A DNA stretch of 64,000 nucleotides from a candidate division FCPU426 bacterium (GCA_963847625.1 CAWKAR010000025.1:64001-128000), one strand, 5' to 3'; shown: positions 25,107 through 47,941, counted from the first letter of the stretch. Made by a program: numbers and translations. The notes: generated by a model from the sequence alone, not told the origin.

Positions 25107-26144
25107 ACCTTAAACTCCCAAGGCCATAGAACGCGCAAAGGAAGAAAATGGGAAACCAACGCCATCCATTATATTTTGAGAAATGAAACTTATACTGGGG
25201 TTTTGATCTTTAATAGGGCTCATAAAAATTCAGTAAAACCCATAGAACGTCCTGAAAGCGAAACAATCCGCATTGAAAATGCCCACCCCGCCATTATTGA
25301 CAGAAAAACTTTTCTTTCTGCCCAGTTTTTCATAAAGCTAAGAAGTCCTAAGGTTGTTCACCCGCGAACTATCCATAGCGACTATATTCTAAGCAGTTTC
25401 CTTTTATGTGGAGAATGCGGTTCTCATATGGTTGGAACTACCGCCAAGGGTTCTAAATTTTTTTATTATTCCTGCCGGAATCACTTAAGAAGGGGTTCTC
25501 ATGGATGTGGGCAAAAATCTATCAACAAGGCCAAACTTGAAGAAATGGTTTTCACGCAACTTAGAAACCGCATTTTGACTGAAGAAAATATCTCAGAGTT
25601 AGTCAAACTGATTAATAAAGACCTTTCAGCTTATAAACGCGATTATTCAAATCTTTTGAAAGAAAATGATTCCCGAATTTTAAAAGCCAGGGAAAGCCTT
25701 CAAAAACTTTACTACGCCCTTGAAACTGGAAAGCTTGACCTTGATGACCTTGCCCCAAGAATCAAAGAATTGCGTTCTCAAATTTCCCAATTAGAGCAGG
25801 AAAAAACCAAGATCGAATCAGAGGCAAATGAGCCAACCTTGGAAATAAACGCCTCGGAAATCGGCCCTTACGTTGAAGATTTGCGGGGACTATTGGAGAA
25901 AGGCACCATTACAAAGCGGAAAGGTTTCTTAAAGTCTTTTATAAAGCAAATTGAATATAGCCACCAAAAAGGCGGCTCTATTGAATACACCATTCCTCTT
26001 GTGAAAAAACCTAATAACGAATTATCAAATATTGAAGTTCTGCCTATTAACCAAAATGGCGGGGTTGACGGGGCTAGAACACGCTTTCTCGCACCTGACA
26101 AACAAAATTTTCAGATGAACCAACTTCTTATTCCTGGGTTCTGA
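25107..26144 (+). pseudogene. Large serine recombinase, 5'-truncated (recombinase, zinc-ribbon and coiled-coil parts only)
   Basis: LNSQG...W...ILRNETYTG, HPAIID, LLCGECGSHM and YYSC motifs. The catalytic resolvase domain is absent, and the track start at 25080 lies inside the IS3 IR. Confidence 0.88.
26057..26080 (-). other. tRNA 3'-end-like att remnant (T-arm, acceptor strand, CCA)
   Basis: Minus strand reads GTTCTAGCCCCGTCAACCCCGCCA. Confidence 0.6.
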
Positions 26145-26152
26145 CTTGGTTT

Positions 26153-26205
26153 TTCTCTTCCGCACGCCAACGTTTGGAAACTTCCGCCTCGATGCCGGCA
26201 TGGTC
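26153..26205 (-). repeat. Direct repeat of the ubiX 3' end (copy A)
   Basis: 51/53 identical to 39112-39164; encodes DHAGIEAEVSKRWRAEE and continues KNQVRTQE to a stop at 26128. Confidence 0.92.
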
Positions 26206-26262
26206 ATTAACCAGGAAATGCCATTACACAGACCTCATAGGTGATCGGTACGTGGTGAATCA

Positions 26263-27651
26263 TTAGATGTTCCCAAGATCGATATCCACCCACGAGGGCG
26301 TCGGGGTGACCGTCGGCTGGGGCGAAGAAGCCTTTTGGGTTTCGGGGGATCCCCTCAAAAAGACCGCGAAATAACCCGCTTCCCCATTCGAGAAAGCCTC
26401 GGCGGGATAATTGGTCTGGATTCCGCTGTTCACCGCCTTGGAAATCCACGCAAGCGACGACCGGATGGCGTCGAGCCGGTAAAAGTTGGGGATCAAGTCG
26501 AAGGACCGCTTCACATAATCCTTGTAGGACTTAAATTGGTAAGGCCCGGCGGGATCCGCGAAGGAGGCCGCAATGGGGGCATGGATATCCAGTAGCATCA
26601 TATTCTTGATCCCCATTTCCCGGCTGAGGGCCGCCAGAACGGAGGGGGGCGTATACAGGGTCCAAATCACCCCAAAGCGGTGGTGTTTGTCGGTGAATAG
26701 GTAGGACCGGGCCACGTCGTCATAAAAGGAACAAAAAGCATTGGGATACTCGTCCGGGCCCGGCTTGCCGTTTTCCACCACCATGAAGCGGTTTTGAACG
26801 AAGGTTTTTATTTTTTTCTTATCCGGCAATTTTCGGTAGGTGCCCAGGGCCATGTGTCCGTCCTGGTACAAGGTGAAGGTGGCCATCTCGGGCTGGGGCG
26901 GAAGGAAGGTCCGGGAATCAAAACGGAACCCGGCATAACGCATTTGTTTTTCCGGCACGCCCCAATTGACCACGTTGTCGACGCGGTCGAAGATGCCGTT
27001 GAGGATGCCCAGGAGCCCGGTGGAGTCCTGGATCAAGGCGTAATCGGTTTTCCCCCCATTCCTTTCCTCCCGGGTCGCCATAGGAAGCCATTCCCCCATG
27101 TGGGTCCGGTCCCCGCCCTTGAACTGGATTTTCCCGGGGTAATAAAGGCACCGGGCCTGCGCCTGGTCGAAGGAAAGGTAAAAAACCATGGCCCTCTCCC
27201 GCATCAGGCCCCCATTGTCCAAAAGAAGCTTTTTTCCCCTGGGACCCAAGCCCTTAAAGCCCTTGACCCTCGCGAGAAACCGCTTGAAATACTTTTTGCC
27301 CCCCGCGTGATACTTGACCCGAAACCCGGCGTAAACGGCGGTCGCGGCGGGGCTGTTGGCCTTGAAATCCACGGCGCATGGGGCCGCGAGCGGGAACCCT
27401 CTCTTGTTCGCCCGGGCCTGCCGTGCCCAATCCACGTGAAGGATGAAGGGCCGCTCCCTCCTGGTCAAACGCCTGGGATGGGGAATGCGGATTTTGGAAA
27501 GTCCCTCGTAAAGCCACTCCCCGGCTTTCTTGTAAAAATAGCCCCGGAATTCCGAAACTTCTTTCGCGCTTGCTTTCCCGGCAAGGAATTGGATGAGGCA
27601 AAACACCAGTGTCAAAAGGGCAAAGATGAAAATGATTTTATTTTTTTTCAT
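26263..27651 (-). CDS. Exported protein with a phosphodiester glycosidase (NAGPA)-like C-terminal domain
   Basis: Signal peptide MKKNKIIFIFALL; ATFTLYQDG...QNRFMVVENG...ARS...MMLLDIH pattern resembles NAGPA-family proteins. Confidence 0.5.
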   Translation of the reverse strand: MKKNKIIFIFALLTLVFCLIQFLAGKASAKEVSEFRGYFYKKAGEWLYEGLSKIRIPHPRRLTRRERPFILHVDWARQARANKRGFPLAAPCAVDFKANSPAATAVYAGFRVKYHAGGKKYFKRFLARVKGFKGLGPRGKKLLLDNGGLMRERAMVFYLSFDQAQARCLYYPGKIQFKGGDRTHMGEWLPMATREERNGGKTDYALIQDSTGLLGILNGIFDRVDNVVNWGVPEKQMRYAGFRFDSRTFLPPQPEMATFTLYQDGHMALGTYRKLPDKKKIKTFVQNRFMVVENGKPGPDEYPNAFCSFYDDVARSYLFTDKHHRFGVIWTLYTPPSVLAALSREMGIKNMMLLDIHAPIAASFADPAGPYQFKSYKDYVKRSFDLIPNFYRLDAIRSSLAWISKAVNSGIQTNYPAEAFSNGEAGYFAVFLRGSPETQKASSPQPTVTPTPSWVDIDLGNI

Positions 27652-30007
27652 TCTCGATTTTCTTGTCGTAAACAAGGATATTCACTTTGTCCGCGCGGCC
27701 CTGGGAATCCAGCACCGATACTTCCCATTTCCCCTGTTCCGGGCTCCAGAAGAAAAGCTTATCCGGCTTTCCTTGCGCGATGAGCCGGCCATTCACGAAC
27801 CAGTAAACCTGGTCCACGTCGGGGCCGGCCTGGACCGATAACGTCATCCGCTGGCTTTCCAGGGGTATCCCCTGCTGGATCTCGTATTTCCCCTCGGATT
27901 TGGGCGATTGGATATGGGGCGTGAAGCGGGAGAAGAAATAAGCGCAATCCGGATTATGCCGGGGGATGGCCTCGAATTTTTTCCCGTGGCTCCTGAGATA
28001 CCGCGTCACGTCCGGTGGCCAGATCTCGAAAATTTTGGAGTAGTATTCCTCTGGCTTGCCCGTCATGCAATAACGGCAAACTTCCTTTCCGTCTTTTTTC
28101 CTGATCCAAACCCTTCGGTGGACCTGGCAGGGATGGTTGTCGCTGACGGCCGGGATGAACATATCCTCGATCACGTCCTTGCAATCGTCTCCGGCCGGCT
28201 GGCCCGAGAGGGCGCATATTTTGCGGAATTGGACTCCCGGCGGCCTCTGGAACCAGGAGTCATTGGAGCGGGTCAAGGCGTTGAAGAGATTGATGACCAC
28301 CGGGGCCGCGGCGTCGTGGCCGATCAAGGCGGGAGACCCCTGGTTATCCGTGTTGCCGAGCCAGACCCCGATGGTGTAATCCGGGTTATAGCCGACGCAC
28401 CAGGCGTCCCGGTGGCCGAAGGAGGTGCCGGTTTTAAAGGCCACCTTTCCGCGGGTGGGTGAAAATTCCCAGGAAGCGGGAATATCCGTTCTTTCCACCT
28501 TGGCCAGCATTTCGGAAATCATGTAGCTGGATTCCCGGGAAAGCACTTCCTTTCCCTTCTCCGGGCCTTGGGTTTCATCCTCAAAAAATCTCAGGCTTCT
28601 CATCTTCCCGCCGTTGGCCAGGGCCGCGTAAATCCGGACCATTTCCTCCACCGTCATGGGATAGGCCCCTAAAACCACCGACAGACCCGGTTCCAACTGG
28701 CCCCTTTCCCGCCCGATACAGCCGGCTTCCTTGATCCAAAATTCCAGGCCGTCGTTTCCTATGGATTCCAGGCTTGATTCCAACCCCACCGCGGGAATGT
28801 TCAAGGAGCGGGCCAAGGCGTCTTCCGCCGGAATGAGCCCCCCGTACTTCCCCTCGTAATTGGCCGGTTTAAAGCCGCCGTAATCGCGCGGGATATCGAA
28901 AAGCGTGGTCTTGGGTGTGATCAACCCGTGGTCCATCGCCAAGCCATACAGGAAAGGTTTCAAGGCCGATCCCGGGGAGCGGGGAATGTTGGCGCCGTTT
29001 ACCTGCCCACCCCTGGGGTCGTGGAAATCCGGGCTTCCCACGTAAGCCACCACTTTCATCGTGTGGTTGTCCACCATGATGACCGCGCCGTTATGGACCC
29101 CCTGGTTTCTGATGGGCGCTATGGCGCCTTCCAGCATTTTCAAGGCCAATCCCTGTAAATTGGGTTGGAGGGCCAGCTGGACCACTCCCGGGGCATGGCT
29201 GGATAGATGGGCCGCTCGAGCCACCAAATGGGGAGCCGGATTGGGATTCAAGTACCGGCCTTTGGGCAGGATGGAATGGAAAGCTTCCTCCGCCTCGATT
29301 TGGGGTGGCTTCACGATGGGAAGGATTTGCCCAAGGACCTTGTCCCTTCCCTCCCTCGCCTTTTCGGGGAACCGGTCGGGACGCCGCGCCGCGGGCGACC
29401 GGGGAAGGCTGATCAAAAGCGCGGTTTCACCCCAGGAAAGGAGCTTGGCCGGCTTGCCGAAATAAAGAAGCGACGCCGCACCCACCCCCTCGATGTTGCC
29501 CCCCATGGGAACGCTGTTCAGGTAGAACTCGAGGATCTGTTTCTTGGAATAGCGGGCCTCCAACTGCATGGCCCGGAAAGTCTCGATTCCCTTGGCCCAG
29601 AAGGTCCGGGGCCTGCGGTCCATCAGCTTGGCCACCTGCATGGTAATGGTGGAAGCCCCCGAGAGGATTTTATGGCGGGTCAAATTCAGGACGAGGGCCC
29701 GGACCAATGCCGCCGGATTCACCCCGTAATGCCAGTAAAACCACCGGTCCTCGTAGGCCATAAAACCCCGGATGACCTGGGGTGAAATTTCATCCAGTTT
29801 CAAGGGAAGGCGGTACTTGCCACTTTTGGAAAGGGTGAGCCGCAATAGGCTTCCGTCGGAGGCCAGGTAGGCCGTGGAATAGTCGCCGTGAAGTTTCTTA
29901 ACCGGAAGGGGCACAAGACGGAGAAGGACGTAAAACCCGGCCAGGCACAACAAAAAACGGAGGATGAACCGTTTGTGATTGCTAAAGGGCCATTTCATAG
30001 TTTGCAT
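27638..30007 (-). CDS. pbpC: Penicillin-binding protein 1C
   Basis: EDRWFYWHYGVN and GASTITMQVA (GT51); GSALKPF, SLN and KTGTSFGHRDAW (transpeptidase); C-terminal VYWFVNG domain; downstream of A2M. Confidence 0.93.
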   Translation of the reverse strand: MQTMKWPFSNHKRFILRFLLCLAGFYVLLRLVPLPVKKLHGDYSTAYLASDGSLLRLTLSKSGKYRLPLKLDEISPQVIRGFMAYEDRWFYWHYGVNPAALVRALVLNLTRHKILSGASTITMQVAKLMDRRPRTFWAKGIETFRAMQLEARYSKKQILEFYLNSVPMGGNIEGVGAASLLYFGKPAKLLSWGETALLISLPRSPAARRPDRFPEKAREGRDKVLGQILPIVKPPQIEAEEAFHSILPKGRYLNPNPAPHLVARAAHLSSHAPGVVQLALQPNLQGLALKMLEGAIAPIRNQGVHNGAVIMVDNHTMKVVAYVGSPDFHDPRGGQVNGANIPRSPGSALKPFLYGLAMDHGLITPKTTLFDIPRDYGGFKPANYEGKYGGLIPAEDALARSLNIPAVGLESSLESIGNDGLEFWIKEAGCIGRERGQLEPGLSVVLGAYPMTVEEMVRIYAALANGGKMRSLRFFEDETQGPEKGKEVLSRESSYMISEMLAKVERTDIPASWEFSPTRGKVAFKTGTSFGHRDAWCVGYNPDYTIGVWLGNTDNQGSPALIGHDAAAPVVINLFNALTRSNDSWFQRPPGVQFRKICALSGQPAGDDCKDVIEDMFIPAVSDNHPCQVHRRVWIRKKDGKEVCRYCMTGKPEEYYSKIFEIWPPDVTRYLRSHGKKFEAIPRHNPDCAYFFSRFTPHIQSPKSEGKYEIQQGIPLESQRMTLSVQAGPDVDQVYWFVNGRLIAQGKPDKLFFWSPEQGKWEVSVLDSQGRADKVNILVYDKKIENEKK

Positions 30008-30253: not shown

Positions 30254-30816
30254 TTAGTTCTCTTTTATCACAACAATAGTCCCTATCTTGCAATAAGTTT
30301 TAATTTCATCTATTTCTTCGTTTGTGACGGCAATACATCCCTTTGTCCAATCAATAAAATGATGCAAGAAACCTAACCATCCGAGACCCTTCTTGAGTCC
30401 ATGAATGCCTACAATGCCGCCTAATTTTGTATCACTCGGTGGAATTTTATGACTCTGTTGGGCTTTTATAATATTTCCAAATTCATTTTGATGAATAACT
30501 CCATCGTGAAAACCTTTCAGGGCATCCGCTTCATTGGGATAACTGAGATAAATAAAAAAATGAAAATCGCTGGTATTGTTCATCGCAACAACTCTATACA
30601 CCCCAACAGGCGTTTTATTGTCACCGGCAACTTGTTTGGCACCAGCGCCTCCTTTGCCAATCGAACACTTGTATTGTTTAAAAATTTGGCCGCCTTTTTT
30701 ACTTTAAGGGCATGTTCCGATTTAATGATTTCTAAAGAAAAATCCTTGGCGTAAATCAATCCATCAACTGAGTGTAAGAAAATTGAAAAGAAGAAAATAA
30801 ATTTAAGATATTTCAT
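30254..30816 (-). pseudogene. L,D-transpeptidase (YkuD family), frameshifted at T6 30695-30700
   Basis: Adding one base gives signal peptide...KQVAGDNKTPVGVYRV...LSYPN...GIHG...WTKGCIAV. Confidence 0.85.
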
Positions 30817-30853: not shown

Positions 30854-33800
30854 TTAATATTTCGCGGGAGCAATATTAAGCGTTTGGCCCTCGTTGGATC
30901 GCCCGAAGATTTCAGGGTCGTACATGGCTTCGGCCTCCAAACCAGGCACCTGGAACGATCCGGGCGTGACCGCCCGGACGCTGTAGGAGAAGGTCTGGTC
31001 CCCGTCCACGTCCTTCGAGAAGAGAAGAACCCGGTCATCCCTGAAATCCTGGAAGACCGGCGAGAAGCTGCATTCCGGCTCGAACGAAAGGTTGCCCCGC
31101 GAGGAAAGGCGCGGATTGTCCACCTCGAACCCGGCCGGCAGGAGATCCACCACCACCAGGTTGTCCAGCGGCTTGGTGCACTTCACGCGCAAGGTCACCA
31201 CCACCAATTGGCCCTGGGAAATCGACCCCAGGTTGATGGTATTCCCGTTCTCATCCCTGTACTCGCGGCTGACGGTCAGGCCATTCGCGACCGATTCCTT
31301 TTCCGATTTCAGCTTGGTGCCCTCGGCCATGAGATGGTAATAAAGGTCGCGGTCGCCGGTATTCTTCAGGTCAACGTCCTTGCCCGAAATCTTCTCGTCC
31401 TTCACCACCGCCGTCTCCCCGCTCAATTCGGCGGGGGCTTCCCCCTTCACGGACCATTGGGCGCTCAAGGGATAGTTCTGGGTGGTGGCCCGGACCGCCT
31501 TCCCAACAGCCATGAAACAGAGGGCGTCCTCCTGGGTCGTGCCGTACCAGCCGTGCCCGAATTCCTTCAGCTTCTTGCCGAACTCGATGATGAGCTTGGG
31601 GATCTCCGGGTTCTTGGGGTCCGCCTCGGTCATGGCCAAAAGGTAAAGGGCCATTTCCCGGTTGGGGGAGAACCAATCCCCGTTCATCAACCGGGCCAGG
31701 CTGGTGGGAAGGTAATGCGCGGGAAGAAGGGATAGGGCGGTCGTGCGATCGCCCAGCGCGGAATAGGCCCGGGACAGGTAACAGCGCTCGCTCAACCGGC
31801 GCGCCTTCGGGTCCTGCATCTGGTCCTTCATGGCGGCCATCGACTCGGGATCGGGCCGGTCGGCCAGGACTTTCAGGTAAAGCACGTAGGCGCTGTCCCC
31901 GATCTCGACGTTTTGCTTTCGGCGGTCCAGCCTCCCACCCCCTTGCCGGTGACCTTGATGGCCCCAAGCCGGTTCATGATCCTATCCAGGACATTCTCGT
32001 TGACCTGGTAGCCCTGCTTTTTCGCCGTGAGCAGGAATTCGGAGACGTAATTGGACAAGTATTCCCCGCCGCCCTCCTCCTGGCCTGGCCAGAGCGCGAA
32101 GTCCCCGTCGGACAACTGCATCTTGCCCAGGTCGTCAATGGCGTCCTGCACGTACATTTCCACCGCGTTGGCCCTTCCGCTGAAACGCCCCGTCAAAAGG
32201 CCCATATCCTTGAAGAAAAGAAGAGGGAAAGCCTGTGAGGTCCTCTGCTCGGCACAGCCATAGGGGTAATGGATGAGGTAATCCATGCTCCCCAGGAACG
32301 TCAACAAGGGGCTGGAAGAAACCGTCATGCGGACCTTTTGTCCTTGCCGGATGAAGCCGCCGGGAACCGACAGGACCTGGGTCCCGCCCGCCCCCAACTG
32401 GCCGAAGCTGATTTGCGTCGTCAAGGGATTGCCGGGCCTCACCGCCAGCTCGGTTTCCACGTCGAAATCGTTTCCATCCTCATCCGTGGCGGTCACCTTG
32501 AAATGCGCCACGCCAGCGTCCATTTGGGCCTTGGCGTGGAACAGGATCTGTTTTTGCCCCTCCTCGCCCAGGCTGATATCCTGTTTTTTCTCGCCGTCGA
32601 CCGCGACGGGACCGCTGGCGGAGAGGCTGACCTTGATGCTCTGGGGTTTCTTCGTGTTGTTATAGACCAGGACCGGCATGTCAATGTGGTCCCCGGGCGC
32701 GAGAAACCGGGGAAAGGACGGCTCCACCACCACCGGATCCGCCACCTTCACGTGGAAGGCGGAAGCCCCGAATTTATTCGCCTGCACTCCCAGGGCCATG
32801 ACCCTTACTTCCCCGTGGAACTTGTCCGTCGGGAAGTGGTAGCTGACCTTCCCCTCCTTGTCCGCCGTCAGGATGCCGGAGAAGAGGGCGAAGGATTTCA
32901 CCCGTTTGGCTTCGATGGGGTTCAAATGGCGGAATTGGAAGGATTCACCCTCGTCCCCGCCCACCGCGTCCTTGCGGTCCAGGTCGGGAAGGATGTCCTC
33001 GAACAAGCTCAAGGTGGAGGTCGTGAGGCCCCGCTTGCGGTAGAAATACTTGAAGGGGTCGGGCGTGGTGAAAGCGATGATCTGGAGGATTCCCTCGTCC
33101 ACCGCGGCCAGGACCACGCTGGCCCCCGGCGTGCCGGTGGACAGGTTCACGTCGATGCCGTCCTTGGACTTTACGGACTCGGGCGCTTCCCACTTGAAGT
33201 CGATCTCATGGCTGGTGGTGTCCATCGCCAGGGTCGCGATCCCGAAGGAAGCCATCGGCATGGTCCTTAATTCCTCATTGGGCTTGCGCACCAGGAGCCC
33301 CACCACGTAGGCGTTGGGCATGTAGGCGGTCTCGACCGGGGGAAGGCTCAGCACGTTGAGCCCCGCCGCAACCGGCACCGTCGAGGTGTAAAAAACCCTC
33401 TCCCGTTCGATGGAAAGGATCAGCCTTCCGGCGAAGGGCGCGCGCACTTCCAGCTTGGGGATCTCGCCGGACTGGTATTGGGTCTTGTCGAGGTTGAGGG
33501 ACAGCTTGTCCGGCTCGCCCAGGTCGGCGGATTCCTGCTGGTTCTCCTCTTTTTCCTCGGGTCCGGACACCGCCACCATGACGGAACTGCGCATGGACTC
33601 CTCGTTGCCCAGGTAGATGGTGTATTCCCCCGGCTTATCCGGCGTGAAGGTGTAGGAACCCTTTCCGTCCACGTTGACTTCTTTGCCGTCCACCACCTGC
33701 TCGTAATAGGCCGACTCGTAGCCGCGTCCGGACCATCCGCTCCGCCTGAAAATGGAATACCAGACTTTGCGCTTGACGAGAAGGATGGCTTTTTCCACCT

Positions 33801-36800
33801 TGGTCGGGTCGCCGTCCGGGGTGATGGCCACGTACTTGATGTGGACTTCCTTATTGGGGGCCGATTCCTTACCTTCCTCGCACTTGAGGCCCAGGTAATA
33901 GGGATAGCGGTGGACCCGGATGGCGGCGTTGGCGCCGACGGGCCTCCCCCCGGTGTCCAACACCTCGGCATAGACCTCAGCCTGGAGCATGGAAGGAGGA
34001 AGCATGGAGATGGGCACGGGTAATTGCACGTCAAAATTGCCCGCCGCGTCCGTCGACCCGTCCGGGACCTTCAAACTTTCGCCCGTGAACTGCCGGGTGG
34101 GGTCGGAAAAATGGTAGCTTTTCCATTTCTTGTCCGTGAATTCAATCGGGCTCAATTGGACGGCGGTTCGCACCTTCAGGCTCACGCCCGGCGCCCCGAA
34201 GAGCTGGCGCACCGCGACCCGGAAGGAGAGTTGCTCCCCGGGATTGGCGGTTTTCTTGGCGGGACGCACCTCGACCTTGATCTTGTTGGGGATGAATTCC
34301 TCCACCTTAATGGAGGTGGACGCCAGGTGGACCCCGTTCTCCAGTCCCAGCTCGACGTTCAGCATGCCGGTGGTGATGTCCTCCTTAATGGGAAAATTGA
34401 AGGTCGCCATGCCGTAGTCATGGAGTTTGGCGGTGAGTTTGGCCACCTGGTTCCCGTTTTCATCCTTGATGACGAGGTTCACGGGAAGGTCCTCGGGGAT
34501 ATCCAGGTCCGCCCGCCTCACGACCGCCGTGAAATTGGCCTTGTCCCCGGGGCGGTAAAGGCCCCGGTCCGAGGTCAGGAACGCGTCCCATCCGGTGGAT
34601 TGGAAAGGATCCCCGCTCACGTCGAAGCGCGATTGGTTCAAGGCCGGCTGGTCCAGGCGGAGGTAGGACCAATCGTCCCCCAATTGGGCCACGACGACAT
34701 AGGCGTTGAAATGGTAGGGGTTGTTCTTCCAGTCCTTGAACCAGACCCGTCCCTCGGGATCCGTTTCCTTTTCCTGGATGACCTGGTTAGTGTCGGAAAT
34801 CAGCTGTAATTTCACCCCAACCGCCGGGGTCAGCCTGGAGATGGAAAGCACCTGCACCAAAAGGTCGTCGCCCGAGTACTTCAGCATCATGCCCAGGTCG
34901 GTGCAAAGGAAGGAACGGGAGTCCCGTCCGCCGCCGTTGGCTCCGTTCAGGGAAACCACGAATAGCCCCTTATAAGGCTGGCTGTGCCATTGGCTGAAAT
35001 CCAGGTCCGTTTCCGTTTCCTGGTTGATCTGCCCTTCGTTCACCTTCACGTTTCCGCCCCAGACATGGGCGCCCAACCCCGCGGTCGAGCCAGAATCGGA
35101 CTGGTAGTTATTCTCGCTGGGTTCGTCCCCTTCACCCTCATCCTCGTCCTCTTCCTGTTGCCGCTGGAAATAAGCGCGGCGCTGGGGCCGGCGGTAAGAG
35201 TGCCGGTAGTAGTAGTTGGGGTAACTGCGCCAGTTCTTCAGGAAATCGACGATGTTGTTGCGGAACACTTTTTCGACGCCGACGGAATAATTGTCCAGGT
35301 TCATGGTTTTAACCGAGACAATCTTTTTTCCCTCCAGAGGGATCAACCGCCCGTTATCGCCGAAACGCACGTAGGGCTCGATATCTTCCAGACGGATATC
35401 CTGGTCGCTGGCATGCTCCAGGATTTCCCCGGAAATGGCGCGCAGGCCCTCCTTCACGTGGATTTTGTAGTTGATGTTGGGTTGGAAATCCGCTTTCAAG
35501 ACGGCGTAGCAATATTCCGTATCCACCTTGAAGGGAATCGCCGGTTCGATGGACACGTTGTTGCGCACTTGGGAGGAAGAAGCCGGAAGCGTGAACAGGA
35601 TGGAGATCAGCGTGTTTCCCGGAACATGGTGGAGCTTGATCCCCTCCACCAGCATCTTGGGCTTGGCGGGAAGGGTGATGGTGCTTTGGTACTTGTCGGC
35701 CAGGGGCTTCCCGCAATCCACGCAGGACAAGCCCGCCGCCACGGTTACCGTCAGGGTCTGGGGTTCGGTTTCACGCACCAGCCCCCCCGCCTTGAAGAAA
35801 AACCGCGTGGGAAGGGTTCCCTGTTCCAGCTCGTAGTTCAGGGAGCTTCCCGCCCGGGATACGGAAAGGCTCTGTTTGAGCAGGTTCATGTCCACCGGAT
35901 AGTTGAACTCGATCTCGCCCACCAGCTCTTTTTCCGTTCCCTTGATGAGGTCGTAGGTATAGAAAAGCCGGCTGGAAACCACCTTCATGGCTTCGGTCGA
36001 AAAAGTGGTATTGGAGCTTTTTTCCAGGAAAAATTGTTTCGAGGAAAGCTTACCCGAGACGTTCAAGTGCACCTGGTAAGTGGTGGCGGGTTTCAGGGGA
36101 GCCGCGGGGGTGAAAACCAGGGTCGTGGAATCCTCCAGGCGGCTGGTTCCGGGCAGGGGGGGTGTAATCTCGAACGCGGAGTCCAAGGCGCTGATGACTT
36201 GGACGTCCCCGGAGAATTTGGCCCGGATGACCGTATTGGCCGAGGTCACCATTCCCCGGGGGGTAAAACTGATGATATGGGTGGTGAAAGTATTATAGAT
36301 CAAAAGATAAATCAGCCAGGCCGCGGCCAGGCACGCCAATATTAGGGCGGCCTTCCGGGCCAGGGGTTTCTTGGATAACTTCAATACGCTTTCCCCGCCT
36401 TTGGCTCCTTTTTGCTTGAGGAATCGGGCCGCCTTCTGGAAAAAAGGGCTTTGCCGCAGAATTTTCCATTTGGAACGCCAATCCAGGTCCGGCAATCCGT
36501 CCTTCTTGGCGATTTTTTCCGAAATTCCATAAGACTCGTAAAGACGGGTCAGATAGATAATCAATACTTGCAGGGACCAAGCCGGGTTTCTTTTGAGGAG
36601 GGCGAAAGGGATGGGGAGAAGGGCGTAGAGCCAGATCCAAGCCCGGAGGTTGCGGTGCTTCGTTTCCCGCATCCTTTCCCAAAACACCAGGAACAGCCCG
36701 GAAAGGATGAGGTGCAGCGCCAGCATCCAATTGTTTCTCTCGAAAAAATAGGGGGAATAAAAAGGGTTCATGAGGAACGTCAACCCGCCTACGGTGTAAA

Positions 36801-37836
36801 AAGCGAGAGCGCGGATGAAGGTTTGGGGTAATTTCAGGATTTGGGATCGGACCTGGGCGGTTAAAACCGTCAGGACGAGGATAACCATCGGGATGATCAG
36901 GGAACCGGTCTGGTTTTGAATGTAAATAAATCCCAAGAGCGAACCCAGGCTCAGGAAAACTTCCTTCGCGTGGGGTTTCAGCCAGGGATTCCAGCCCCAG
37001 AGCAAACCCAAAACCAGGATTTGGAAGGGCCAGCCGAAATTACCATGGAAGAAGTAATAATATGGAAGCATCGGGACAACGGCGAAAAGCGATAGATAAA
37101 GCCGCCCCCGGGTGGCATTCGCTTCCTTCAACTTTTCCCACAAAAGAAAAACCAGGGCCGAGAGCAGGAAATGGTGGATCAGGACGACCGGACCCCACCC
37201 TTTAATGACCTGTTGAACCCCGCGGACCGTTTCAAAGATGGGAAGTTCCGGCCAGTAGCGGTAGATCCAGTCCGTGAAATAAAACAGGACAAAGGCTTTT
37301 AGGATTTCGGGGTCCCGGCGGAATAAGAACCGGCGCAGCAGGGGGGAGACGCCCCAGAAAATGATGGAAATCCAGTAAACGGGGGGAAGCCCCATGAGGC
37401 AAACCGCGAAGGCGGCCGCCGTGAATACCGGCGGAAGAATATTGGAGTGGAATTTTTCGAGCGCCCGGATTTTTTTCAAATCATCCCGGACCATCTCCCA
37501 TCCCAAAAGAATCGTGGAATACACCACCAGGGCCAGCGCCGTGATCCAGACAATCTTCAGGTGGGAGCTGCTCGTCGGGACCTTATCGAAAAATTTCGGG
37601 GTCAGAAAGGAAAAGATCATCATGAGGGAAAAACCCTCAACCGCCCGGAAAGGATACTTCAGGTAAATCTTGCGCAGGAGGCCGACCGCCATGAACAACG
37701 GCAGGAACAGCCACAAATTTTTATTTTGGATCAGGAGGACGGCATTGGGGTGGTTCATCCAATTGGGAATGATTGCGACAAGGGCGATTAGAACGGTGAT
37801 TCCAAACCAGGCGTTTAATATTTTCCTGGGAATCAT
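30854..37836 (-). CDS. Bacterial alpha-2-macroglobulin with a polytopic N-terminal domain; single frameshift at C5 31938-31942
   Basis: DRGLYRPGD, VEEFIP, AAVDEGIL, PRFLAPGD and thioester YPYGCAEQ. The C-terminal ORF has DLLPAGFE, RDDRV and AEAMYDP; one extra G joins the two ORFs. Confidence 0.92.
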
Positions 37837-37880: not shown

Positions 37881-39017
37881 ATGAAACAAAAATTGATTTT
37901 CTGCAACCTTGTCATTCTTCTTGTCCTGGCCTCTCGGGTAGGTCACGGCCAGGAAAAAAACGCGTTCCTTTCGGTTCGTATCCTTGAAAGACTAAAACTG
38001 CAGGAATTGGAGGTTCAGTCCCCCGCGAATCATGGCGTTTGGAACCGAATCAAATTAGCACCGGGCCAAATGTCCGTCAACGACAAAGCACAAAAAGAGG
38101 CCTCCTGGGGCTCTCCGGATTCAACCGTTAAAATAAGGGCTTTAAATTTAAGGCGAATTTATCCTGGGATGATCGTCATCACAACGCAGGCCGGGGAAAA
38201 GGGTCCGGAACTGCTCATTTTAAACCAGGTCTTCCTGGGGGATTACACGGCTTGTGTCACGGCCTTTGAATCCGGTTATGACCCTTCCCAGCCGGAATAC
38301 TTGAAGGCGCTGGCGGCCATCATCCGCGCTTACGCCTCCTCACACCGCAAACGTCACGACTCCTATGATCTCTGCGACCTCTCCCATTGCCAAGTTTACC
38401 AAGGGCTCCCAAGCCATTTCAGTTTTTGGAAGCAAATGGCGGACGCAGGCACGTCATTCAGGTTTCCTTCATCAATAGATCCGAAATCCATTTATTTCCA
38501 CCGCTGTTGCGGAGGTGTTTTGGAGTCAGCGGACCAACTCTGGGGGGGAGCGCCTTCCGCCAGCCGGACGGGTCCAGATGAGTGGGATGGCAAAACCCTC
38601 TGCCAGGACGATCCTCTATTCCAGTGGACTTCCTCGACGGAGGTAAAAAACGTCGAGTCCGTCCTGAGAACCATGGCCCGTCTCCCTTCAGCGGCTGTCT
38701 TGAGAACATTCAGGGTCGATAAAAAAACAACTCATGGGCGGAACAAGGTATTGTCGGCGCGATTCCAAATGCCGGAAGGGGGAACCAGGGAAATCCGCGA
38801 AAATGCCATCCATTTCGAATCCGAATTCGGGAAACACTATGGCTGGCGCGTCTTTCCTAGTGATTTGTTCGGGATCAAACGGGAAGATGATATTTTCAAA
38901 TTTACCGGTCGGGGTCTTGGCCACGGTGTAGGGCTTTGCCAGTCCGGCGCCTTGAAACTGGCCCAATTGGGGTGGACCTGGGAAAAAATTCTTAACTTCT
39001 ATTTTCCTTCAAGGTGA
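37881..39017 (+). CDS. SpoIID/LytB domain protein (lytic-transglycosylase-like)
   Basis: EYLKALAAIIRAYA, YDLCDLSHCQVY, FHRCCGG, GRGLGHGVGLCQ and ILNFYFP motifs. Confidence 0.88.
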   Translation: MKQKLIFCNLVILLVLASRVGHGQEKNAFLSVRILERLKLQELEVQSPANHGVWNRIKLAPGQMSVNDKAQKEASWGSPDSTVKIRALNLRRIYPGMIVITTQAGEKGPELLILNQVFLGDYTACVTAFESGYDPSQPEYLKALAAIIRAYASSHRKRHDSYDLCDLSHCQVYQGLPSHFSFWKQMADAGTSFRFPSSIDPKSIYFHRCCGGVLESADQLWGGAPSASRTGPDEWDGKTLCQDDPLFQWTSSTEVKNVESVLRTMARLPSAAVLRTFRVDKKTTHGRNKVLSARFQMPEGGTREIRENAIHFESEFGKHYGWRVFPSDLFGIKREDDIFKFTGRGLGHGVGLCQSGALKLAQLGWTWEKILNFYFPSR

Positions 39018-39080: not shown

Positions 39081-39661
39081 TCAGTCATTATTAGCCATTC
39101 TAATTTTTTTCTTCTCTTCCGCACGCCAGCGTTTGGAAACTTCCGCCTCGATGCCGACATGGTCGTAAACCCGGGCGATGACCGTATCCACAAGATCCTC
39201 AATGGTCTTGGGATTGCCGTAAAAGCTGGGAGTCGCCGGGATGACATGGGCGCCAGCCAGGGTGAGAAGTTCCATATTCTTGATTTGAATCAGGGATAGG
39301 GGTGTCTCCCGGGGAACCAATATCAGCTTACGGCGTTCTTTCAAGAACACCTCCCCAGAGCGGGTGATCAGGTTATCGGTAATGCCATGGGCCAGCTTCC
39401 CCAGGGTGGCGGTGGAGCAAGGAATGACCACCATGGCCTCAAATTTGTTGGAACCGCTGGCCGAGGGGGCTGTCAGGTCGTTTTCGCCCCATTCCCTCAC
39501 GTGGGGGGGAGGTTCAGCCCACCCTCATGGGACGCCACGATGCGGGCGGCGGAGGATACCACCGCGTGCACTTCCCAATCGTCATAGGGAAGGTGTTGGA
39601 AAAACCTTCTGGCATAGAGGGTCCCTGATGCGCCCGTCACCGCTACTAGGATCTTCTTCAT
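39081..39661 (-). pseudogene. ubiX: Flavin prenyltransferase UbiX, frameshifted at G7 39503-39509
   Basis: MKKILVAVTGASG in one frame; SASGS, PCS, LKERRKLILVPRETP and PSFY in another; G8 would restore the ORF. Confidence 0.9.
39112..39164 (-). repeat. Direct repeat within the ubiX 3' end (copy B)
   Basis: 51/53 identical to 26153-26205. Confidence 0.92.
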
Positions 39662-42483: not shown

Positions 42484-43728
42484 TTATCGCACGAGCAGGA
42501 CTCTTTTTATTTTAGTGCCGAAGGGTTCCACGAGGTCAATGAGGTAAACCCCGCTGGCACAGGGGTCGCCATACTTGTTGGTCCCATCCCATTGGTACGA
42601 CTGGCTGATGGGAGCTTCGAGTTCTTCGGAAGCGAGCGTTTTAATGTGTTCGCCGGCCGAATTATAAATCCGCAAGTCGTAACTCCCTGGATACTGGGTA
42701 TATTCCACGAAAATGGAAACCGGATCCGAGGGATTGAAGGTGTTTTTGGACACGTAAAAGACGTCGGCGACGACAGGCGTAAGGGTGATGGTGGGAGTGG
42801 CGGTGGGCGTGGGAGTAATCGTAGGGGTGTTCGTGATCGTAAAGGTATTGGTGATCGTGGGGGTATTGGTAAGGGTGGGGGTGGGCGTGGGGGTGGGCGT
42901 CGGGGAGACCGTCGGAGTCATGGTCGGGGTTAAGGTAAAGGTCAACGTATTGGTGGGCGTGGGGGTGACCGTCGGGGTGTCCGTCGGAGGAAAGGTCGGG
43001 GTGACGGTCGGCGTATTGGTGGGGGTCCCTAACGCGGAACAAGAGTTTACGGTATAATTTTTGTATTCATTTTGGTTTGGCGAATTTAAATAGCCGCTCC
43101 TGATTCCAACGGCCCCGGTCGTAAAGGTGGAGTCCGTAACGTTAAATATCAGCTGGTTGCCGTTGCCGTTATTGAAGTTCAAGTAGCACATAAAATTAGT
43201 CCCGCAGCAAACGACTGTCATATGGACCCAGGTTCCGACGGTATAGGTTGGTGTTGACGCGGTGCTTATATAAGACCAACCGCTTGACGAGTGTTTCTCA
43301 AACTGCCACTGCCCATAGTTGATTTGAAACGAATAGAAATCCGCCCCGGTTTGGCCCTTGAAAATGATGCCGAAAATCCCGCCAACTTGCGCGGACATGA
43401 CATCGCACTGGATGGTGTAGTCGGTCAACGCGGGGTTGAAATTCGCGGGGGTCACCAAGAATTGTTCGGCACAGTAGGTGGGATTGGCCGTATTGAGCAA
43501 AATCCCGCCCGAGGCGCTGAAGTAATTCGTGTAATTCGGGTCCGGAGTCCCCGGGTCGCCGTAATAAAAATTGTAATTGGAGAGGCTGGCATTCGAGGAA
43601 TAGTTATCCTGGAAAAGAACCCCCCCGAGGCTTGGGCAACAACCCTGGCCATAAGCCAAACCGGAGGATCCCGCGAAAATAAGGGCGAATAAAACAGGAA
43701 AAGAGAGATGTTTACAGATAGTTTTCAT
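42484..43728 (-). CDS. Secreted protein: concanavalin/DUF1080-like domain, Pro/Thr linker, FlgD-Ig/T9SS-CTD-like tail
   Basis: Signal peptide; TPT repeats; tail SKNTFNP...LRIYNSAGEHIKTL...WDGTN...SGVYLI. Confidence 0.75.
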   Translation of the reverse strand: MKTICKHLSFPVLFALIFAGSSGLAYGQGCCPSLGGVLFQDNYSSNASLSNYNFYYGDPGTPDPNYTNYFSASGGILLNTANPTYCAEQFLVTPANFNPALTDYTIQCDVMSAQVGGIFGIIFKGQTGADFYSFQINYGQWQFEKHSSSGWSYISTASTPTYTVGTWVHMTVVCCGTNFMCYLNFNNGNGNQLIFNVTDSTFTTGAVGIRSGYLNSPNQNEYKNYTVNSCSALGTPTNTPTVTPTFPPTDTPTVTPTPTNTLTFTLTPTMTPTVSPTPTPTPTPTLTNTPTITNTFTITNTPTITPTPTATPTITLTPVVADVFYVSKNTFNPSDPVSIFVEYTQYPGSYDLRIYNSAGEHIKTLASEELEAPISQSYQWDGTNKYGDPCASGVYLIDLVEPFGTKIKRVLLVR

Positions 43729-44046
43729 TGTTTTTCTTTATCAACCTCATCCATATATATTAATTTAGCCAGATTACCGCCAGACCATTATCAATAATTA
43801 TATCGCCCTTTCACTGGACACTGGGCTGGATTTTGCGAAACCAGCGTGAGCCATCAGTCAACCACTAATTGTTATCAGCTGATTTATTTTTGCGGGAATG
43901 GCTTGAGAAAGGGGATTCCGGCCGGCGAGGAGGATATGGATGGGGTATAGGCTACCCAGCCTGGTCCGGACACCAGTTTTTAATTCCCTTCCCCGGAAAC
44001 CATCACAACCAAATTCCCCTCGTATCTTGAAATCTGCTTTCAGTCA

Positions 44047-47000
44047 TCATTTTAAAACCAATAGCTTGAAGATTTTTCGCTCAAAGTTAATGTCAACCAC
44101 GACGTAATAAAGTCCGTTGGCCAGCGGCATCCCCCAGAAGTCCTTCAGTTCGACAGGCAATTGATAAATCCCGGGTGGCAACTGGGAAAATGAATTTTCA
44201 TTCACTTTGCGGAAAACCGTGGTAAAAATTTTCAGGCTCACTTGGTTGACCAGATCATTTAACGCGAATTGCAGGGTCACAGGTTCCGGACCCCTGGCGG
44301 GGTCGGGATAGAGAATGGTTTTCACTATTGGGGTGGCCGTGACCGTGGGTGAGTAGGTGGAGGTCGATGTCGGCGTAAAACTCGCGGTGAATGTCGCGGA
44401 AGGCGTCATCGAATTTGTCGGCGAAGAAGTAATGGTATAGGTGCTTGTCGGAGTGCTGGAATAAGTGGCCGTTGGGGTTTCGGTGACAGTGGGGGTCGGG
44501 GTCGGGGTATCCGTGGGTAAGGGTGTTGTGGTTGAGATCGGGGCGTCTATTATTTGGGTTTTAGTGGAAGTGGGTGTTCCGGTCGAAGTGAAAGTGGGAG
44601 TGGAGGTCGCGGTTGGCATGCCGATAGTGGTGTTGGTGGGTGTGGGGGTAACGGTGGGGCTGAGGGTGGATGTGGGTGTCGGTGTGGGAGTGTTAGTGAT
44701 GACATCGATGCATGTGTATACGTGATAGTTTCGGATATGCGCCATGTTGGGGTCCAATAAAAACTCGGTCCGGAACCCCACACCGCCTGAAGTGTACGGC
44801 GGCGAAGCCGTCGTGTCGGTCAAGCTGTAAACCAATTGATCGCCGTTTCCATCGTACAGGTTCACATAGCAATAAAAGGTCGAGCCGGCAACCACCACCT
44901 TCAGGTGGACCCAATTGCCCGGCGTGTAAACCGGCGCGGCAAGCCCCGTGCCGAAGCCGGCGGGCGGCAGGTAGGTAAAGGCGCTTCCCCCCGCCCCGGT
45001 ATCCTTCTGGATCTGCCAATGCGGGTTTGCCCCGTTCTCCGAGTTTCCATTCCATTGAAAGATATAGCCTGTCACGTTGGCCTGTTCCAGGAATTCCAAG
45101 CCAAAAAGGCCGTAATTGTCCGTCCGATGGTCCAGTTTGAAATCCGCTTCCACCGTGTAATTGCTGTAAGCCCAGCTAAACTGCGCGGCATTCAATTGGA
45201 CGTAGGAATGAAGCGTAGCGCCGGCGGAAGAGGATTGCTGCAATTCGCCGCCATTGACCGCGTAATTCAGGGAGGCCGCGGTCATGGAGACGGCGCTGCC
45301 CAAAGTGTAAAAAGTGTAATTCGAAAGGCTGGCGCTGCTGGGGAAAGTGTCAAGGAACTCCACTAGTTGCTGGTTTGAGCCGCAAACAATCGCGGGTGTA
45401 TTCGTGGGGGTCAGGTAAATTCCAGTCGGCGTTATGGTTGGGGTGCAGGTGCTGGTGGGGGTGGAAGTCGGCGTGGGGGGAACGCAGGAAATACTCAATG
45501 AGACATTGTCGAAAGTGGCGCTGGCCAGGGAATGAACGCCGGCGCTGGACACGGCGAATCCCACCGGGGGGTTGGCGCCGATGGTGGTGAGGGTGACCGC
45601 TCCCACCTGGGTCCAGGTCGACCCGTTGACGGATTCATAACCCGTATAGATGTTTCCCGAGCGCTGGAGTTGGAACCAAACCGGGGCCGGCGGATTGGGC
45701 CCGCCGAACGACGTCGTGTTGCCGCCCTGGGTGGAGCGGTAGGCGAAAACCGCCTGGGCCCCGTTATAAGCCATGCCCAGGTAAACGTAAGGGGAGTCAT
45801 CCGCGGAATTGTCCCGGAACATGAGTCCGGCCTGGTTGTTCGAACTACCGTTTTGGATACCGGTCAAACGCGCCGTCAAGGTGCTGTACCCGCAGGAAGG
45901 CTGGCTCACGAACTGGAAGGAATCCTGCTCGATACCGCTTAAATTCATGCCGATGCCGAACCCCGCCCCGTTTACCGTGAAGGTTCCGCCGGAATAACTG
46001 CTGCTTCCCAAAAGACGCATGTACTTCAATTCCAAGGGTGTGGCCGTAGTTTGCATGAGCCAGCCGATGTCCTGGTCCACCCATGGGGAAGGCAGGGTGG
46101 AATTTACGTAGATGCTGATGGGGCAGGAAAACTGGGCCGTTCCCAGCTTGTTGATGGCGTGGGCGGTAATGAAATGGCTGCCCGACGGGACTAGGGGCCA
46201 GTTGATGTCATAGGGGGAGGAGGTGGAGGTTCCAAGGAATTGGCTGTCCACGAAAAAATCCACTTGGGCTATGCCGGCCGTGGAAGCCGCCGAGGCAGTC
46301 AACGCGAGGGTGAGGGGGCCGGTCATGACCGATCCATCCGGGGGGCTGGTCAGGCTCACCGTGGGCACGTCCAGTCCCGAAGCCGGCGGAACGGAAGCGG
46401 CCATAGGAGGCGCGGTTTGGTTGATGGTGCGGGCGTTGTCCTCGGTGTTGGCCACTCCCGTGGCCACGCCCAGGTAAGTCTCAAGGGGGGTGGAGAAATA
46501 GGGGGTATAAACCCCGGGCGCATAGGCCATGATGGTTCGGTATTGGACGCCTTGGGAGGTATAGCGGTTGCCCGCAGAGTAGGAATAAACACCCGGTCCG
46601 CCGTTTGCGAAATCGTGGCCGCACCCAAGGTTGTGTCCCATTTCGTGGATCATCGCCTCGGCGAAAATCACGTGTTCCATGCTGTAATGGCCCGGCAAAA
46701 AACCAAGGCCCATGACCGGGTCCGATCCCGCCACCAGCATGTTCACCATGACCGCCCCATAAGAACTTTGTATGGCCTGGATAGCGGAAATGGTTCCGTT
46801 CCCCATGTTGGGCAGGTCGGTGAACATGCTTCCCTGTTCGGTGTAATTGACCTGGCCGGAGTAAACCAACTGCATCTGCGCGTTGATGCCGCTGTTGAAG
46901 TAGACCATGTTGTTGTAGAAAACGACCGTATCGATGAGGGATTCCATGGCTTGAGCGCTGCCCATGACACCCAACGCCGCGGGGGTGTAAACCACGGCCA

Positions 47001-47616
47001 GGTTCAACACGGTCGGGTTCAGGGCGTAATGACAGCCGGCTGGATAGTTGAGGGGTATAAGCCAGGGCATGCCTTCCTGGGGGAAGCCGGCCGCTAACCG
47101 GGAGTCTGAAAGCCCCGGATGGGAACCGTCCAGGCCGCACTGGAGGCCTTTTTCCTCGTCCACCTCCATGATCCGGTGAAGTCCGTTTCCCGCGGGGAGG
47201 ATTTTAAAAGTCCCCTTCCCCGGGATGAAAAAGATGCCGGTCATGATTCCATCGGCGTGGGTGACCACGCCCATGCTACCCGTCACCTCCTTGAATTGGC
47301 CGGTATAAACCGTCCTGCCATGGGGCCTTTTCTCGGCGTGCCCCAAGACAAGGGTGTAATCGGCATCGTCAAAAAGATTCATGTGAAGTTGTGGCTGGGC
47401 GCCCGGATGGAAACGCTCCGGATGGATTGATTCCAGGAATTCCTTGTGGAATTTCACGAACCGGTCGCGTTTAACGAAGGATTCCGCCCGGTAGGTGGCG
47501 GGCCGGGGGGCTTCTTCAAAGACTTTCGGGCCATCGGCGGCTTGTGCGAGGAACCTGGATAGGAAAAAACTTCCGGCCAACACCGCGACGGATAGGATTC
47601 GTTGGATATATTTCAT
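44047..47616 (-). CDS. Secreted multidomain reprolysin-like (M12B) zinc metalloprotease with Ig-like, beta-sandwich, Pro/Thr and CTD-like domains
   Basis: HEMGHNLGCGH zinc motif with RTIMAY Met-turn; PTVSLTSP Ig domain; tail LYPDP...KIFTTVFRKV...LANGLYYV; start ATG 47616 precedes a signal peptide. Confidence 0.85.
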   Translation of the reverse strand: MKYIQRILSVAVLAGSFFLSRFLAQAADGPKVFEEAPRPATYRAESFVKRDRFVKFHKEFLESIHPERFHPGAQPQLHMNLFDDADYTLVLGHAEKRPHGRTVYTGQFKEVTGSMGVVTHADGIMTGIFFIPGKGTFKILPAGNGLHRIMEVDEEKGLQCGLDGSHPGLSDSRLAAGFPQEGMPWLIPLNYPAGCHYALNPTVLNLAVVYTPAALGVMGSAQAMESLIDTVVFYNNMVYFNSGINAQMQLVYSGQVNYTEQGSMFTDLPNMGNGTISAIQAIQSSYGAVMVNMLVAGSDPVMGLGFLPGHYSMEHVIFAEAMIHEMGHNLGCGHDFANGGPGVYSYSAGNRYTSQGVQYRTIMAYAPGVYTPYFSTPLETYLGVATGVANTEDNARTINQTAPPMAASVPPASGLDVPTVSLTSPPDGSVMTGPLTLALTASAASTAGIAQVDFFVDSQFLGTSTSSPYDINWPLVPSGSHFITAHAINKLGTAQFSCPISIYVNSTLPSPWVDQDIGWLMQTTATPLELKYMRLLGSSSYSGGTFTVNGAGFGIGMNLSGIEQDSFQFVSQPSCGYSTLTARLTGIQNGSSNNQAGLMFRDNSADDSPYVYLGMAYNGAQAVFAYRSTQGGNTTSFGGPNPPAPVWFQLQRSGNIYTGYESVNGSTWTQVGAVTLTTIGANPPVGFAVSSAGVHSLASATFDNVSLSISCVPPTPTSTPTSTCTPTITPTGIYLTPTNTPAIVCGSNQQLVEFLDTFPSSASLSNYTFYTLGSAVSMTAASLNYAVNGGELQQSSSAGATLHSYVQLNAAQFSWAYSNYTVEADFKLDHRTDNYGLFGLEFLEQANVTGYIFQWNGNSENGANPHWQIQKDTGAGGSAFTYLPPAGFGTGLAAPVYTPGNWVHLKVVVAGSTFYCYVNLYDGNGDQLVYSLTDTTASPPYTSGGVGFRTEFLLDPNMAHIRNYHVYTCIDVITNTPTPTPTSTLSPTVTPTPTNTTIGMPTATSTPTFTSTGTPTSTKTQIIDAPISTTTPLPTDTPTPTPTVTETPTATYSSTPTSTYTITSSPTNSMTPSATFTASFTPTSTSTYSPTVTATPIVKTILYPDPARGPEPVTLQFALNDLVNQVSLKIFTTVFRKVNENSFSQLPPGIYQLPVELKDFWGMPLANGLYYVVVDINFERKIFKLLVLK

Positions 47617-47941
47617 CGACTCACCAATCGATCGGATGAAAAATTGAAACCTCTGAAAAACTAAAATAAAGCGGCAAACAGAGGTTTCGACCCCAAAGAT
47701 TTCCGCAGGAAATTGTGGGGTTACCTTCAATGGTTGCTGAAAAAGTTGGCGATAAGCCGACTTTTTCAGAGGTTACAAATTAATAATTTCCGAGCCGCTT
47801 TTCAAAATGACTCATAATATAGTGTCTAGCTGATAAACGTCAGATCATCGCTAACCGTTAAAAACGTCACATCATTGATGACTGCCTCTTTAGAAGGAGT
47901 AAAAATTATACTCATGAACATCTCTTGAAAGGGAGGTATTC

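Follow-up and report, generated by a model that had tools for sequence, protein, structure and literature searches.

A thioester-type alpha-2-macroglobulin fused to a repeat-containing polytopic membrane module in one family of uncultured bacteria

Introduction

Published accounts of bacterial alpha-2-macroglobulins (A2Ms) present them either as lipoproteins or as soluble proteins that a separate partner with one helix retains (PMC5764988, PMC4498604). Type I A2Ms, such as ECAM (YfhM) of E. coli and SaA2M of Salmonella, have a signal peptide with a lipobox cysteine (PMC3735191), and combine a CxEQ motif, a bait region, MG domains and the motifs RDDR and ExMY with a pbpC gene downstream (PMC4498604, PMC3735191). 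The proposal that A2M and PBP1C cooperate in defence and repair rests on this gene order (PMC5764988, PMC4498604). MagD, from the six-gene mag operon of P. aeruginosa, has no CxEQ motif and is anchored and stabilised by MagB, a separate protein with one predicted helix (PMC5764988, PMC3735191). Here we describe an A2M gene found in 64,000 nucleotides of DNA from a candidate division FCPU426 bacterium (GCA_963847625.1, CAWKAR010000025.1:64001-128000; this whole stretch is called the window). Its product begins with a polytopic membrane module that contains a tandem six-helix repeat and is fused in frame to a thioester-type A2M, and the gene belongs to a conserved cassette with a SpoIID-family gene and a PBP1C gene.

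Judged from its sequence, the window protein appears to be a variant of type I bacterial A2M, not a canonical member, and is predicted to trap proteases. With type I proteins it shares the CxEQ, RDDR and ExMY motifs, the bait region, the MG domains and a downstream pbpC. It lacks a lipobox, however, begins with about 17 helices that form tandem repeats, carries a Big_5 domain and is encoded beside a divergent SpoIID-family gene. The presence of CAEQ and the three-gene cassette set it apart from type II A2Ms. SpoIIM, which we compare with the module by analogy, is a polytopic protein. It is the proposed anchor of SpoIID and SpoIIP, a membrane protein with a suggested role in organising the SpoIID lytic transglycosylase (PMC6221140). 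The window protein has no sporulation context and is fused to an A2M, and the SpoIIM family was matched neither by residues 1-522 nor by any of 14 repeat members in Pfam scans. What it would share with MagD is attachment of the A2M to the inner membrane through a protein anchor in place of a lipid (PMC5764988, PMC3735191). By analogy, then, the module would work like MagB or SpoIIM while belonging to neither family. TgpA (PA2873) also has a multi-helix N-terminus followed by a large periplasmic domain (PMC3507681), and the repeat gives weak, in-register Pfam matches to it. These matches score under the cut-off, however, profile comparison does not confirm them, the unit is repeated here, and the cargo is an A2M and not a transglutaminase.

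Results

The minus strand of the window holds a stop-free frame running from 37836 to 31873 and encoding 1987 amino acids (aa). Residues 1-515, referred to below as the module, are hydrophobic and stand in frame ahead of a thioester-type A2M; the fusion of a membrane domain of about 500 aa to an A2M, claimed in the initial annotation, is thus borne out by an open frame in which the module is followed by Big_5 and by MG and bait domains. No stop separates the membrane part from the A2M in the window (whose genome is designated G000) or in the five full-length relatives, from the related genomes G001, G022, G024, G025 and G004. According to Pfam, the order after the module is Big_5 (aa 521-594), bMG3, MG2, bMG5, the bait region (aa 1445-1586), the A2M domain and the start of the thioester domain (together 31933..36294, minus strand), and A2M_BRD, bMG3, bMG5, MG2, A2M and bMG10 all exceed their cut-offs. 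The thioester motif CAEQ (C1861; 32245..32256, minus strand) is retained in all five full-length relatives. The first cysteine is residue 146, within the module, and the lipobox of type I A2Ms is absent. A strong ribosome-binding-like sequence, recognised by eye, precedes the start in the window, G001 and G022. At aa 870-920 (about 35070-35230) the A2M carries an Arg/Tyr-rich and then acidic low-complexity insertion of variable length, almost missing in G022, which may form a second loop sensitive to proteases.

Near 31932, in a G-rich stretch 1450 codons beyond the module, the window's A2M frame shifts by one base, and the rest of the thioester domain and bMG10, with RDDR and EAMY, follow in another frame (30854..31932, minus strand). 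The same region is continuous in the five relatives, and a frame change or stop interrupts 11/97 G000 orthologues of G001, five of them with two-frame matches. The two-frame proteins include what we take, from their N-termini, to be EF-G and GlmS. Since the relatives are continuous and indel-type breaks occur across G000 genes, an assembly error is the likely cause of the break near 31932.

The initial annotation had divided the membrane domain into three repeats, and the recurring motifs that it quoted are present in the sequence. Two clear, full copies stand: unit B (aa 128-284; 36985..37455, minus strand) comprises helices 5-10 and unit C (aa 288-436; 36529..36975, minus strand) helices 11-16. 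The first, unit A (aa 1-120; 37477..37836, minus strand), is only a degenerate partial copy of four helices. The last 80 residues of the interval first assigned to the repeats contain none, and consist of a basic linker (aa 437-495, 59 residues; 36352..36528, minus strand), which is probably cytoplasmic and amphipathic and has 17 Lys and Arg in aa 434-495, and a single anchor helix (aa 496-514; 36295..36351, minus strand) whose position matches that of the only N-terminal helix in the A2M of G010, which has no module. Linker and anchor helix together resemble the complete N-terminus of that protein. From the sequence, then, the module would consist of a degenerate four-helix unit, two full six-helix units, a basic linker and an anchor helix.

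Units B and C matched each other with an hhalign probability of 98.9% (E 3e-17, 114 columns) and a pairwise score of 83, which was reached by 0/1000 global and 0/1000 local shuffles. Unit A was related to unit C with a score of 56 (equalled by 1 and 7 of 1000 shuffles) and an hhalign probability of 82% (E 1e-5, 86 columns), and to the joint profile with 70%; its pairwise comparison with unit B was not significant (764/1000 shuffles; hhalign 8%). The best of 16 control profiles reached 0.6% with unit A, 1.6% with unit B and 23% with unit C, the last being unit C's own reversal. The unit A profile also scored about 10 bits against three paralogues in G000, which look like generic hydrophobic matches.

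The predicted structure of the module is all-helical, but the models are poor (pLDDT 62; pTM 0.45 and 0.36). About 17 helices were read by hand from the alignments and the model helices, whereas a plain Kyte-Doolittle scan of the 515 residues gave 13 non-overlapping hydrophobic windows. With helix boundaries set by hand, 41 Lys and Arg fall on the putative inner side and 8 on the outer side (24 and 8 without the linker). This asymmetry argues for an N-terminus inside and an A2M outside. The longest cytoplasmic stretch in this topology is 62 aa, with 27-73% identity among relatives. An internal start before helix 17 common to the seven homologues was not found, candidates occurring in single genomes only.

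Residues 1-522 matched no Pfam family at E<=0.1. NCBIfam, PHROGs and PDB sequences gave nothing convincing, with 0 PDB matches at E<=1, and Foldseek searches with the module models returned no match at E<=0.001. The best VIA-align hits (Z 8.6, rmsd 3.6, 116 aligned; Z 8.7, rmsd 3.6, 100 aligned) are generic helical bundles. Rhodopsins reached Z 6-7.8 for a single unit, which falls within what common arrangements give for a model of pLDDT 62. A search of the ESM Atlas gave a single cluster, at 0.77 and without a name, but no named match of use; this shows neither novelty nor absence. The earlier description of a novel membrane module thus holds as far as these libraries go, the module never standing alone on a complete gene, with the reservation that a weak hint of TgpA_N, weighed below, remains. 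An A2M with a polytopic N-terminus was not found described in the literature, domain-architecture surveys in subscription papers or supplements lying outside the search. As far as sequence can tell, this appears to be a genuine, rare architecture of a known protein class, undescribed in the literature searched.

To place the module we surveyed 30 other genomes of the same family and 30 from other families. It was present in 7/30 of the former, spanning seven genera including that of G000, and in 0/30 of the latter; a profile of the repeat recovered the same 8 genomes among 99 of the phylum. Five relatives have a complete open gene of 2132-2328 aa, while two more, and one metagenome locus, end at contig edges. 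An A2M occurs in 13 family genomes, 8 of them close in their core (54-94% identity) and 5 distant (25-32%). Seven of the close eight bear the module; in the remaining one, G012, which is the most divergent of the clade, the N-terminus is not assembled. The distant A2Ms lack the module; in four of them one hydrophobic segment at the N-terminus is recognisable by eye, and the fifth is incomplete. HMMER searches of 1.84 billion cluster representatives gave 4 matches, two of which run on into the A2M Ig domain, the other two being pieces of 301 and 102 aa on contigs of 1131 and 960 bases. Word-index searches among long proteins returned two proteins each, the query and one relative, and a metagenome scan found nothing with the single-protein query and one locus with a closer alignment. 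Asked whether homologues are fused or stand alone, these searches answer that they are fused, with no complete stand-alone gene seen in the 99 phylum genomes or the 1.84 billion representatives. On the sequences covered, the module appears confined to this A2M clade in one family of uncultured bacteria.

The number of units varies. In G004 one six-helix unit fewer is present and the whole A2M, with CAEQ, is kept; the front of its single unit is B-like (12.4 vs 3.2 bits) and the rear C-like (40.6 vs 26.8). Duplication and deletion are both possible causes, the position of G004 being undecided in both trees. The module is under purifying selection, with dN/dS of 0.16 against G001 and 0.23 against G022, compared with 0.08 and 0.12 for the A2M body. 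Its sequence nevertheless changes much more rapidly than those of membrane enzymes encoded in the same genomes. Against G024 and G025 the module units are 29-43% identical, whereas the A2M MG and bait-thioester regions are 75-78%, MurJ 69-70%, two SEDS proteins 78-82% and the membrane part of ComEC 66-69%. Most of the invariant module residues are W, P, L, R or K, joined by a small number of polar ones (N28, H29, E234, Q272, E387). Also invariant are a W-x-N-H-P motif in the first outer loop of unit A (aa 26-30) and, in units B and C, a W-E pair where the fourth helix reaches the inner side. Mid-membrane His is swapped for Gln or Arg in some copies, and the module alignment holds no invariant set of catalytic residues. 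In our view, such a pattern is more in keeping with a structural block than with an enzyme, a transporter or a metal site.

The conserved cassette comprises three genes: the SpoIID-family gene, the A2M and, downstream of it, PBP1C. DNA homology between G000 and G001 spans these three genes and nothing further, and the neighbours of the cassette differ between G000 and G001 and in every other relative. The SpoIID/LytB-family gene (37881..39017, plus strand) has a signal-peptide-like N-terminus and lies head-to-head with the A2M start, 44 bp away. A close paralogue (46-78% identical) was found in exactly the 6/31 genomes that have a fully assembled module gene (that of the window and 5 of the 30 others searched), always head-to-head, and it adjoins the module in 7/7 loci with upstream DNA. 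The paralogue keeps an invariant Glu and a Cys/His cluster, which recall, without direct alignment, the residues that serve catalysis and zinc binding in C. difficile SpoIID (PMC6221140). PBP1C (27638..30007, minus strand; Transgly, Transpeptidase and BiPBP_C by Pfam) also flanks 4/5 distant, module-less A2Ms. The gene that tracks the module is therefore the SpoIID paralogue, not PBP1C.

A2M and PBP1C are neighbours, as in type I loci, but in the window a YkuD (L,D-transpeptidase-like) gene intervenes (30254..30815, minus strand). It lies in two frames, has a low GC content (37-43%) with the frame switch at an A-run, and has no match in the loci of the five relatives. In G025, 4.6 kb of other DNA stands between A2M and PBP1C. 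The cassette is part of a 13-kb block that has a 77-nt direct repeat at its ends: one copy lies at the 3' end of a ubiX-like gene (39098..39174, plus strand) and the other, 87% identical, beside a recombinase-domain gene (26139..26215, plus strand). These are the only two copies in G000. Homology with G001 stops exactly at the ubiX-like repeat site, beyond which other genes and insertion sequence (IS) elements follow, and because of this the site may be an insertion hotspot.

The surroundings hold several further features. The ubiX-like gene itself, at about 39500 in G000, is disrupted in the same way as the A2M, which points to indel errors. Within the repeat-bounded block, positions 26263-27675 encode a protein of 470 aa whose N-terminus looks signal-like; it matches no Pfam family and is absent from the relatives' loci. 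Elsewhere in the family, unrelated A2M loci share types of neighbour, judged by eye: a transporter-like membrane gene in L039, L042 and L047 and a glycosyltransferase-like gene in L013 and L047. This suggests a shared insertion region where A2M cassettes replace one another. Further along the window, 42484-47730 encodes a pair of secreted proteins that both contain Thr-Pro repeats. One has lectin-like and FlgD Ig domains; the other has an M12B-like metallopeptidase domain, which places a native protease gene near the protease trap.

Discussion

We interpret the module as a non-catalytic anchor and scaffold platform for the thioester A2M within a mobile SpoIID-A2M-PBP1C cassette, and would give this an even chance of being right. 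If the chain starts in the cytoplasm and crosses the membrane an odd number of times (about 17), the A2M body would lie in the periplasm on an uncleaved anchor helix, where it would trap incoming proteases as other A2Ms do. The repeats, which share one orientation, would make up a rigid block in the membrane that keeps a large A2M attached and in position without lipidation. The conserved outer loops of unit A could be a surface that gathers wall-remodelling enzymes, with the SpoIID-family lytic transglycosylase as the first partner and PBP1C as the repair synthase. The suggestion that the membrane domain might scaffold PBP1C survives in part, scaffolding being the best reading, whereas the gene specific to the module is SpoIID, and PBP1C also flanks module-less A2Ms.

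Several points weigh against a scaffold. Contact of the module with SpoIID or PBP1C, like its topology and role, is something we only infer. One helix suffices in the module-less G010, so anchoring alone needs no 16 extra helices. The count of 17 comes from manual reading only, against 13 from the hydropathy scan, and the poor models leave room for a pore or binding cavity. The co-occurrence with SpoIID comes from one clade, and since these genomes are kin it may be plain linkage on a mobile cassette and not independent co-occurrence. SpoIIM, moreover, is dispensable in C. difficile (PMC6221140).

Where the module came from is a question compatible with the scaffold reading. A distant kinship of the six-helix unit with TgpA_N (PF11992; DUF3488), the multi-helix N-terminal region that carries TgpA's periplasmic transglutaminase domain, with amplification and grafting onto an A2M in the present case, seems to us a reasonable possibility, though one we would bet against. 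TgpA_N is the commonest Pfam match of the repeat (4/14 members; 8/16 segments from 5 proteins; 1/14, unit B of G001, at E 0.0045), with a best E of 1.4e-4 at 21.4 bits. The matches keep one register (profile about 3-138, to 177 with the anchor helix) that covers six helices, and 0/30 unrelated membrane control segments matched the family at E<=1; these came from 58 candidates, once duplicates, apparent shadow frames, segments found via TgpA_N and some further ones had been removed. With the unit C profile, one TgpA takes rank 2 among 424 scored proteins, in the same register, and the overall layout is that of TgpA. Yet all scores fall below the curated 30 bits, the matching members are kin and not independent, and the window's own segments do not match TgpA_N. 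The rank-2 score is only 6 bits, with the remaining TgpA sequences mid-field, and hhalign against 1, 4 and 6 TgpA sequences gave at most 2%, albeit with shallow profiles. Control segments gave seemingly spurious matches to other families at E 0.002-0.004, and in genome scans apparently unrelated membrane proteins (glycosyltransferase-like, by our reading) reach 19-32 bits with the TgpA_N model. A Pfam scan of the 1987-aa protein found no transglutaminase core. A large membrane protein unlike TgpA (L070, in G081) passes the TgpA_N cut-off with 32 bits, which shows that the model attracts hydrophobic proteins.

Fast drift, with loss or gain of a unit, would also fit a separate small membrane-protein gene that had joined a single-helix A2M and been kept for folding or some unrelated function, and the resemblance of the linker and helix 17 to the signal-anchor N-terminus of G010 fits such a passenger. 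We think this unlikely, however, as the 99 phylum genomes hold no stand-alone copy, two of the 4 database matches run into the A2M Ig domain and the other two lie on contigs of about 1 kb, and the fusion has lasted across 7 genera under purifying selection. The initial annotation also proposed that the module senses damage and signals it; in a fuller version, cleavage of the bait by a protease, or wall fragments, would alter the membrane block, and the conserved W-E-K helix ends together with the basic linker would relay this to a cytoplasmic partner encoded elsewhere. A2Ms do change conformation greatly on cleavage (PMC4498604), and the W-E pair of the fourth helix is invariant in units B and C. 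But the protein has no output domain, its longest inner stretch being the variable 62 aa noted above, and no kinase, cyclase or regulator is fused to it or conserved nearby, the three genes shared by G000 and G001 including no regulator. Pfam scans matched no sensor family, and the module diverges fast. We consider signalling quite improbable and unsupported. Internal repeats, some polar side chains (H, Q, E, D) that lie within the membrane or close to it, and a neighbouring lytic enzyme that would free wall fragments could instead point to a transporter, a channel or an intramembrane enzyme, for example in recycling of SpoIID products or as an intramembrane protease. With an even number of helices per repeat the copies are parallel and not inverted; unit number varies, the His is not invariant, identity lies far under that of the MurJ, SEDS and ComEC controls, and no such family was significant, which together leave this reading very doubtful. 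Lastly, the indel-type breaks in 11/97 G000 orthologues might cast suspicion on the fusion itself, but the junction is open and alignable in 8 others (7 genomes and one metagenome contig) and in two database proteins, and we see virtually no chance that it is an assembly artefact.

This architecture belongs to one family of uncultured bacteria, it evolves fast, and its function is read from sequence. Within those limits, it provides a membrane repeat for which no library has an entry, and it joins a large membrane block to a protease trap in a compact cassette that adds a lytic transglycosylase. Nature also supplies a deletion series, with no module, two units and three units; together with the small cassette, this makes the coupling of trap and wall enzymes testable in one system. 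A bolder extension of the scaffold reading, which we regard as improbable, is that the protein represents a third class of A2M anchoring, a polytopic inner-membrane 'macroglobulin receptor' in which the amplified six-helix repeat would organise SpoIID and PBP1C into a dedicated machine for cutting and repair beneath the protease trap, and bait cleavage would be mechanically coupled to the recruitment or release of these two enzymes. If that were true, wall repair would be triggered where a foreign protease is caught, and the long-standing, untested A2M-PBP1C defence-and-repair hypothesis would gain a physical form.

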